The notes beneath the pieces were generated by a model. It had not been told where the DNA came from and ran no database searches. It was given only the letters and a program-made list of their open reading frames with translations. From Tubiluchus corallicola (Eukaryota > Animalia > Priapulida), in contig JAQGDQ010000605.1 of assembly GCA_030141605.1 (NCBI GenBank), forward strand, positions 15,368 to 79,367: 64,000 bases of DNA. Reading direction: 5' to 3'. Both the position numbers and the translations under genes were made by a program. How positions within the stretch are numbered: the stretch's first letter is position 1; each line of letters begins with the position of its first letter. Below are positions 11,041 to 14,000 of the stretch, one piece after another.

Positions 11041-14000
11041 ATGGTTTCGTTAAAGTTGCTTTTCGTGTTTTCGTTACTATGCCGCGTCTGTATAGCAGAG
11101 CTGACGTTTAATGTTGATTATGACGACGACGGATTTCATGTGAATATAATCAAACAGTCAAAAACCATTCAGGTAAAGAACAGGTGTCTACATTATAGTT
11201 ATAAAACTTTAATGATTCCGATTTAATTGATATGGAGGTTTATTCATAAAACAACTACGATGTTTGTAAGCCTATATTTGGTATATTAAGGGACAAGCAC
11301 ATTGACGAAGAAGCCTGCGTAAGTCAGTAATTGTGTTTTTTCAAATTTTTAATATAGAGTGGAAATTAAAGGACACTATGTATATAATCCTGTATTTGTA
11401 CAAGATGCAAGACCTACATGTATTTTGCTTGGAAAATTTATTATGCATTTTTAATTTTGCAACAGAGTATGATCTGTTATATTTGTCATAGAAATATTTT
11501 GCTTTCAGCAAAGCTTCACCCACAATATTTTGTGAACGCTACAAAGATTCACGCTGTTCACACCAATTATGTAAGAAGCTTTGAAGCACAGTATAAACAA
11601 TTGTATTTATGTTGATACATCAAGTCTAAGAACATCATTTTATTTCTAGATTTTGAAGCACAGTTTAAACAATAGTATTTATGTTGATACATCAAGGCTA
11701 AGAACATCATTTTATTTCTAGATTTTGAAGCACAGTATAAACAATAGTATTTATGGTGATACATCAAGTGTAAGACCATCATTTTACTTCTAGATTTTGA
11801 AGCACAGTTTAAACAATAGTATTTATGTTGATACATCAAGTCTAAGAACATCATTTTACTTCTAGATTTTGAAGCACAGTTTAAACAATAGTATTTATGT
11901 TGATACATCAAGTCTAAGAACATCATTTTACTTCTAGATTTTGAAGCACAGTTTAAACAATAGTATTTATGGTGATACATCAAGTCTAAGAACATCATTT
12001 TACTTCTAGATTTTGAAGCACAGTTTAAACAATAGTATTTATGGTGATACATCAAGTCTAAGAACATCATTTTACTTCTAGATTTTGAAGCACAGTTTAA
12101 ACAATAGTATTTATGGTGATACATCAAGTCTAAGAACATCATTTTACTTCTAGATTTTGAAGCACAGTTTAAACAATAGTATTTATGGTGATACATCAAG
12201 TCTAAGAACATCATTTTACTTCTAGATTTTGAAGCACAGTTTAAACAATAGTATTTATGGTGATACATCAAGTCTAAGAACATCATTTTACTTCTAGATT
12301 TTGAAGCACAGTTTAAACAATAGTATTTATGGTGATACATCAAGTCAAAGAACATCATTTTATTTCTAGATTTTGAAGCACAGTTTAAACAATAGTATTT
12401 ATGGTGATACATCAAGTCTAAGAACATCATTTTATTTCTAGATTTTGAAGCACAGTATAAACAATAGTATTTATGGTGATACATCAAGGCTAAGAACATC
12501 ATTTTATTTCTAGATTTTGAAGCACAGTTTAAACAATAGTATTTATGTTGATACATCAAGTCTAAGAACATCATTTTATTTCTAGATTTTGAAGCACAGT
12601 ATAAACAATAGTATTTATGGTGATACATCAAGGCTAAGAACATCATTTTATTTCTAGATTTTGAAGCACAGTTTAAACAATAGTATTTATGGTGATACAT
12701 CAAGGCTAAGAACATCATTTTATTTCTAGATTTTGAAGCACAGTTTAAACAATAGTATTTATGGTGATACATCAAGTCTAAGAACATCAGTTTATTTCTA
12801 GATTTTGAAGCACAGTAATGACTCTCCTGTTCTGTACATCGGATCAGGAATCACGCAGTTCACGGAAACTACAGGAAATTTCAAAGTGGAAGATTATTTA
12901 ACAGAACGAGTTGGTCTCAATGAATTTTTTGTTTCCACAGACACAGATGACGTCAAAAGTATTAGCATGTATCGTGGTCAGGAATATCAGGTAATTAATT
13001 ATTTCTTGTCGTGGGTTCTACGTAGGAATCTGGAAAGCTGTTGTTTTTGTTTTCAAAAGGTCAAAGGTCAAAGTCATAATATTGAAAAATGTCAAAATAA
13101 ATACGTAGACGTTTGGTCGCATTGTATGCCTGTTTTGCAGAGTTAATTCAAAACGGATGAAACTATTGTCACCTAATTTGACACAAGAATACGTATGGAT
13201 AAGGCCTGGAAATGAATTGCCCTTCGGTTCAAAACGCCAAAGGTCGACAAATGCGTGTTTTTGTTTTATTTTCGTATTTTTGTATACAAGATGTCAGGAC
13301 AAACATGAAACATTTACGACTCTTACATTTATCTACTTTGTGTACTGTGGTCTTTATACGCATGGCATTTAACTGTGTTTTGAATACATTGTATACAGTT
13401 TACTAGTAATGTATGAGTACGAATAAGTCGTCGGTCACCCAAGTACACAACATTCTACAAAATTGTAACATGCAGTATGATTTATACAGAAATGATATTT
13501 TCTATACCTGGTCAATAACGAGGACGCGACCGAGTCTACAGTGCTGTCGCAACTGCCTGCTTTTATTGCCACAGAAACTGCACTGCGCAAGCATTGACAT
13601 GAACTTTGTGTAGAGTTTTCGGTTTTAACCGAAACAATGTTGCTTGCTTTTGAAAACAGCAGTGAGTTTCTATTGTAATACACCCCATTAATTATCTCTA
13701 AATAGGCTGTACTGGAAATACGATTGGACCCTCATCATCATGACCACGTACTCCTCAAGGTTAATAACACCAGTGAAGGTGTAGATAGAATATGGCTTCG
13801 AGTTTATGCTGAAAATGAAGAACACGTGTATGGAGGAGGGGAACAGTTTTCGTATTTTGACCTAAGAGGTCACGATTTTCCCATATGGACTCGAGAGCAA
13901 GGTGCGGTGAAATATGTCATTTGTTTATCACTTGTTCAAATTACACGACAAACTGGTACGTGTTGTCCAAAATTTGTGTTTGAAAGTTGAGAGAGTTGGC

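Follow-up and report, generated by a model that had tools for sequence, protein, structure and literature searches.

How does a gene settle on one 3′ splice site when that site is written seventeen times in a row, and what, if anything, do the sixteen surplus copies do for the gene that carries them? The question is raised by a 72-bp minisatellite that runs across the junction between intron 1 and exon 2 of a sulfoquinovosidase-like gene in the 64-kb stretch of DNA analysed here (the window). Every copy of the unit carries an acceptor, and every acceptor except the last leads to a premature stop. Such an arrangement could reflect regulation of enzyme dose through the splicing of one gene, or it could be what remains when a repeat happens to grow across a splice site. 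Below we describe the gene and the array, ask what the stops and the strengths of the individual acceptors can say about their use, and weigh the explanations that these data allow.

A sulfoquinovosidase-like host gene

The array lies in a 12-exon GH31 gene on the plus strand (11041..22116, the end being approximate), the model of which encodes 747 aa and has GT-AG boundaries at 11/11 introns, these being 115-1954 nt long. Exons 1-4 are at 11041-11172, 12802-12990, 13706-13901 and 14472-14563, exons 5-8 at 14894-15038, 15197-15312, 17267-17408 and 17757-17851, and exons 9-12 at 19114-19237, 19715-19930, 20046-20282 and 21558-about 22116. Coding exon 1 (11041..11172, +) comprises 44 codons and ends in phase 0, with the donor GT at 11173. 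Its N-terminus is hydrophobic, aligns loosely with the N-termini of homologues and, judged by eye, looks like a signal peptide; the C-terminal tail of the protein is hydrophobic as well.

The match of exon 2 (189 nt; 12802..12990, +) to the E. coli sulfoquinovosidase YihQ starts at the very first residue of the exon (E 1.2e-06, residues 1-49 of the query), and because this match is obtained on reading from 12802, copy 17 of the acceptor is taken to be the authentic one. When exons 2, 7 and 10 (three of the 12) were searched against solved structures, the best matches were YihQ-type chains, and exon 3 as a query brought up 12 proteins, of which most of those bearing a name are annotated as sulfoquinovosidase-like. 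The 747-aa model is 89% identical to a protein from a relative (P0001), which starts in exon 3 and hence is silent on the exon 1/2 junction, and 46-51% identical to six named animal homologues. By sequence, the host gene is a putative member of the YihQ-like sulfoquinovosidase group of GH31. Priapulida are absent from the phyla listed for animal homologues in section 6 of bioRxiv 10.64898/2026.02.11.705467, and 'priapul' has no match in the main text of that preprint. The gene resembles the animal GH31 YihQ-like sulfoquinovosidase homologues in sequence, and its product would be a predicted enzyme from a phylum outside the section 6 list.

Two runs were compared with the sequence on either side of the array, at 12735-16060 and 10700-11660. 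One of them, X1, extends over intron sequence with no joints and so behaves as DNA, with exon 2 and the array edges left without cover; the other, X2, has nothing on the exons of the gene.

Anatomy of the acceptor array

Tandem Repeats Finder places the minisatellite at 11580..12816 (+), with 17.2 copies of a 72-bp unit and 97% matches. Each unit consists of 57 nt from the end of intron 1 and 15 nt from the start of exon 2. A 20-base motif across the junction occurs 17 times, with the G of the AG at 11649+72n (n = 0 to 16), a count that bears out an earlier note on this DNA, in which 17 near-identical acceptors at this spacing had been described within a unit that includes the 3′ splice site and 15 exonic nucleotides.

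The 16 upstream acceptors (11648..12729, +; AG ends at 11649+72n, n = 0 to 15) share a single fate. Joined to donor 11172, each adds 23 further residues and then runs into a stop (16/16), which is the in-frame TAG of the next acceptor; the phase-0 end of exon 1 and a unit length (72) divisible by 3 put this TAG in frame. The stop falls at codon 68 (nt 202-204 of the CDS), for a product of 67 residues. Only acceptor 17, with its exon start at 12802, gives the open 747-aa frame. The same note had claimed that the upstream acceptors stop at the TAG of the following one and that the last copy alone is productive, and both statements hold.

The units differ from their consensus at 26 of 1224 bases, with nine variable columns among the 17 units and five single-copy variants, which are found in copies 1, 3, 3, 11 and 17, mostly near the ends of the array but not exclusively so. 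A C variant at -7 forms a block in copies 3-10, further variants lie at -57, -38 and -25, units 6-10 are five consecutive identical copies, and among the 17 units there are 11 distinct sequence types, whose variants are arranged block-wise. Because of these 11 types and their block-wise variants, the array is judged very likely to be real, its exact copy number being that of this one assembly. TTCTAG and the 15 exonic bases after it are kept in 17/17 copies. All nine variable columns lie outside a 21-base stretch at the junction (P = 0.036, the stretch being chosen post hoc), and for the 15 exonic bases alone, which likewise have no variable column, P = 0.11; these figures give a weak hint that the copied splice signal has been kept intact across units.

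Several other accounts of the repeat were tried and rejected. The left edge of the array is a 13-base match to the end of the unit, and further left a test for a degenerate 18th unit gave a weak local signal (29/1000 shuffles) that did not hold up when the comparison was anchored (639-1503 of 2000 shuffles). A dispersed element was dismissed, as the 72-bp unit has no significant match elsewhere in the 64-kb window, the best further one reaching only E 0.13. Recursive splicing was ruled out because the AG of the copies is followed by AT, not GT. The idea that the copies serve as coding microexons fell as well: real donors score 3.4-9.9, the best donor-like site in the unit reaches 4.2, at the low end of these values, and its use would cause a 34-nt frameshift, and the three in-frame donor options score -2.3 to 2.7.

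Premature stops as the default outcome of junction duplication

Sixteen stops in sixteen copies would be informative about function if stops were a rare outcome of duplicating a splice junction. To put a number on this outcome, single tandem duplications were simulated over 16 other acceptors in the window, each taking in 25-100 bases of intron and 5-50 of exon. Of the 55,936 simulated cases, 92% lost the frame or ran into a stop when the upstream copy was used; of the 18,656 whose unit length is divisible by 3, 77% did so. The stops are the default result of a junction duplication and need no design. Ten exon junctions lie downstream of the stop at codon 68, an arrangement typical of regulated unproductive splicing (AS-NMD) elements, and this too is expected by default. 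The stop is about 200 nt from the start codon, and in mammals NMD can be weak for stops this near to it.

Acceptor strength and position

The acceptors were scored on a matrix built from 17 other acceptors in the window, a small local model, on which copy 17 comes out lowest (7.47, with the other copies at 7.61-10.62). Copies 11-16 score 10.62, and all 17 acceptors lie above 5.7, the leave-one-out median for real acceptors in the window. The authentic acceptor (copy 17; 12789..12801, +) carries a private G at -12 (12790), by which one pyrimidine is lost and an extra, out-of-frame AG is added 11 bases upstream, with a score of -2.1. The earlier note had singled out this feature of the last copy and implied that it helps to pick the last acceptor. 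The G is indeed found in no other copy, but four more variants are likewise confined to single copies, and its implied role is not supported by the scoring, in which the loss of a pyrimidine goes with the lowest matrix value of all. As a mark of selection on the last acceptor, the private G was ruled out on the same ground.

Since copy 17 is lowest on the matrix, it is likely position, and not local sequence strength, that selects the last acceptor, as would be expected from the exon-definition model described in PMC1557585. From copy 17 the exon is 189 nt long; from copies 1-16 it would be 1341 down to 261 nt, and internal exons annotated in the window, 15 in all, measure 92-237 nt. Copy 17 alone would pair across a normal-sized exon with donor 12990, and we infer from this that the last acceptor wins by position. 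Splicing of donor 11172 to copy 1 would leave an intron of 477 nt, inside the range of this gene. Both the anatomy of the locus and the published precedents agree with a predicted choice of the last acceptor, the first of the two options put forward in the earlier note.

Other arrays and genes in the window

The same gene carries another junction array, four copies of a 121-bp unit (19210..19689, +) that takes in the final 28 nt of exon 9 together with the donor. The frame is kept by the first only of the donors at 19237, 19358, 19479 and 19600, the other three leading to a stop after 427 residues, and the relative's protein P0001 shows the first-donor junction at exon 9. The third array (68 bp x 3; 56717..56923, -) repeats the acceptor of coding exon 2, with 40 nt of that exon, in a neighbouring gene with five coding exons and 261 aa (57968-53832, -). 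This gene has one homologue (P0134) and no Pfam domain listed; P0134 is 74% identical over all four junctions, which confirms the gene model. The exon starts in the third array are 56892, 56824 and 56756, and the last alone keeps the frame, so that in both further arrays the innermost splice site alone is productive.

The 43 rows from Tandem Repeats Finder were reduced to one per array, and those with a period of at least 30 were kept, which left 12 arrays. Three of the 12 overlap one of the 38 annotated junctions, against 0.53 expected by random placement (P = 0.013); with the focal array left out, the count is 2/11 against 0.49 expected (P = 0.083), an excess that missed untranslated exons would weaken further.

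Minisatellites that overlap no annotated junction lie at 16075-16691 (37 bp), 43355-43868 (92 bp), 54287-54680 (61 bp) and 56232-56603 (18 bp), the 18-bp array starting about 24 bases into the intron after the exon 2 donor of the neighbouring gene. At 25557-26241 there is a complex 86-104-bp repeat rich in CTG/TTG triplets, whose minus strand may code for a Gln/Thr/Ser-rich stretch of low complexity. An element of about 500 bp, recognised by eye, is dispersed in both orientations (about 8340-8830, 33940-34490, 40760-41300, 48860-49400 and 54070-54280) and is probably a non-autonomous DNA transposon. The window also holds a two-exon FoxO gene (49804-51850, -), exon 2 of which has its best match in Priapulus caudatus (55%, E 3e-102) and its next named matches at E about 1e-59, so that by this one gene the host is probably a priapulid or a near relation of that group, and a four-exon gene with an intact frame (1659-4506, +), which by its appearance may be sorting nexin 3/12.

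Discussion

The array is probably a near-neutral mirage minisatellite whose last acceptor is chosen by position. Its unit spans the exon-intron boundary, the AG is kept, and the 72-bp units are of high identity with block-wise variants, signs of concerted evolution; it is a member of a class known from lancelets and humans, not a new kind of element. We envision that it began with one local duplication across the acceptor, perhaps through slippage at the 13-base match now at its left edge, which could be either the seed of that duplication or the stump of a lost unit. The duplicated unit would then have been amplified by unequal exchange, with which the block-wise variants are consistent. The last acceptor would pair across the normal-sized 189-nt exon with donor 12990, and as it adjoins the full exon 2, enhancers there would assist the pairing. 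The array could sit in intron 1 as near-neutral clutter, with the spliceosome likely using the last copy only, and any leak to an upstream copy would yield the 67-residue product, probably degraded, as a by-product and not a means of control. Some points speak against this reading. The decoys are plausible acceptors, all 17 scoring above the real-site median of 5.7; with pairing across the intron, donor 11172 would preferentially join copy 1 (477 nt); and leaks do occur in the class, as in the human 6-16 and CBS donor arrays (PMC1557585).

One alternative is leakage without selection: the nearest one or two copies would take a modest share of splicing, and mRNA would be somewhat reduced with little dependence on array length. 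Copies 11-16 do outscore copy 17 (10.62 vs 7.47), copy 16 would give an exon of 261 nt, near the local maximum of 237, and in the human 6-16 and CBS donor arrays the two nearest pseudo-sites are used (PMC1557585). However, the closest precedents on the acceptor side, amphioxus BflGb6 and CBS 844ins68, are reported to splice normally, and we consider such leakage unlikely. More doubtful still is a selected rheostat, the second option of the earlier note, in which enzyme dose would be tuned by array length through the fraction of transcripts that goes to NMD. That upstream copies stop in 16/16 cases agrees with it, but so do 92% of random junction duplications end, and the stop, about 200 nt from the start codon, lies where NMD can be weak in mammals. 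The 21 junction bases free of variable columns (P = 0.036, post hoc) and the genome-wide association of human tandem repeats with splicing variation (PMC10078293) count in favour of a rheostat; the two more arrays within 64 kb, one of them in an unrelated gene, and the report that deletion of monomers leaves F7 splicing unaltered (PMC1557585) count against it.

A copy-number dimmer, in which each unit would divert a few percent of transcripts to the stop and junction arrays would arise preferentially at splice sites here, earns equally little credence from us. A search of the literature by titles and the starts of abstracts, with subscription journals mostly outside its scope, found no acceptor-side array acting via NMD or copy number. 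Finally, it is highly improbable that the copy number has been inflated in assembly, or that splicing goes to the first acceptor and leaves a null allele. Units 6-10 are identical and their count could be off, but 11 unit types with block-wise variants show that there are many real copies; intron-defined splicing would favour copy 1, but the frame is intact and the motif-bearing exons match YihQ.

Read as a near-neutral minisatellite, the locus provides one more mirage, here probably in an ecdysozoan. A single gene with an acceptor array of 17 copies and a donor array of four represents a natural substrate for setting exon definition against intron definition in an invertebrate: exon definition predicts copy 17, and intron definition predicts copy 1 and a null allele. 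Were it true that leakage scales with copy number, the array would be a fast-mutating expression dial for the dose of a sulfolipid-digesting enzyme, but none of the present results points that way.

Comparison with known systems

Amphioxus 'mirage' minisatellites have been described in Adh3 and in the globin genes BflGb6 and BflGb9 (PMC3087553), with troponin C and PGBD5 added later (PMC3902484), and in RT-PCR they left splicing undisturbed (PMC3087553, PMC3902484). They have units of 10-160 bp with AG/GT signals, occur in donor-side and acceptor-side forms, and are reported to be polymorphic in length. As in these mirages, the tandem unit described here crosses an intron/exon boundary, and as in BflGb6 it does so on the acceptor side, taking in the intron's 3′ end together with the 5′ portion of exon 2. 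Unlike the globin mirages of amphioxus, which have 3-6 copies, the array here has 17, and its host is probably an ecdysozoan. The amphioxus examples are known with length polymorphism and normal splicing, whereas the present array is known from genomic sequence alone.

In humans, the CBS allele c.844_845ins68 has 68 bp across an intron/exon junction duplicated, so that an identical 3′ splice site is present twice; the distal one is strongly favoured, and the mRNA is normal (PMC2630376, PMC1802585). G runs between the two sites promote the distal choice (PMC1802585). The present array is likewise a junction duplication that repeats an identical 3′ splice site; it differs in having 16 extra copies in place of one, and in an A+T-rich 72-bp unit that is without G runs.

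Arrays on the donor side are also known from humans, in F7 intron 7 (37 bp), CBS intron 13 (31 bp), 6-16, lamin B2 and PDGF (PMC1557585). In F7 the innermost of several identical donors is used exclusively, and deletion of monomers leaves the pattern unchanged; in 6-16 and CBS the two nearest pseudo-sites are used besides the authentic one (PMC1557585). In these VNTRs, as here, a minisatellite repeats a splice site, and in the human cases the innermost site dominates. The focal array is their counterpart on the acceptor side, and the 121-bp array at the exon 9 donor of the same gene is their direct analogue.
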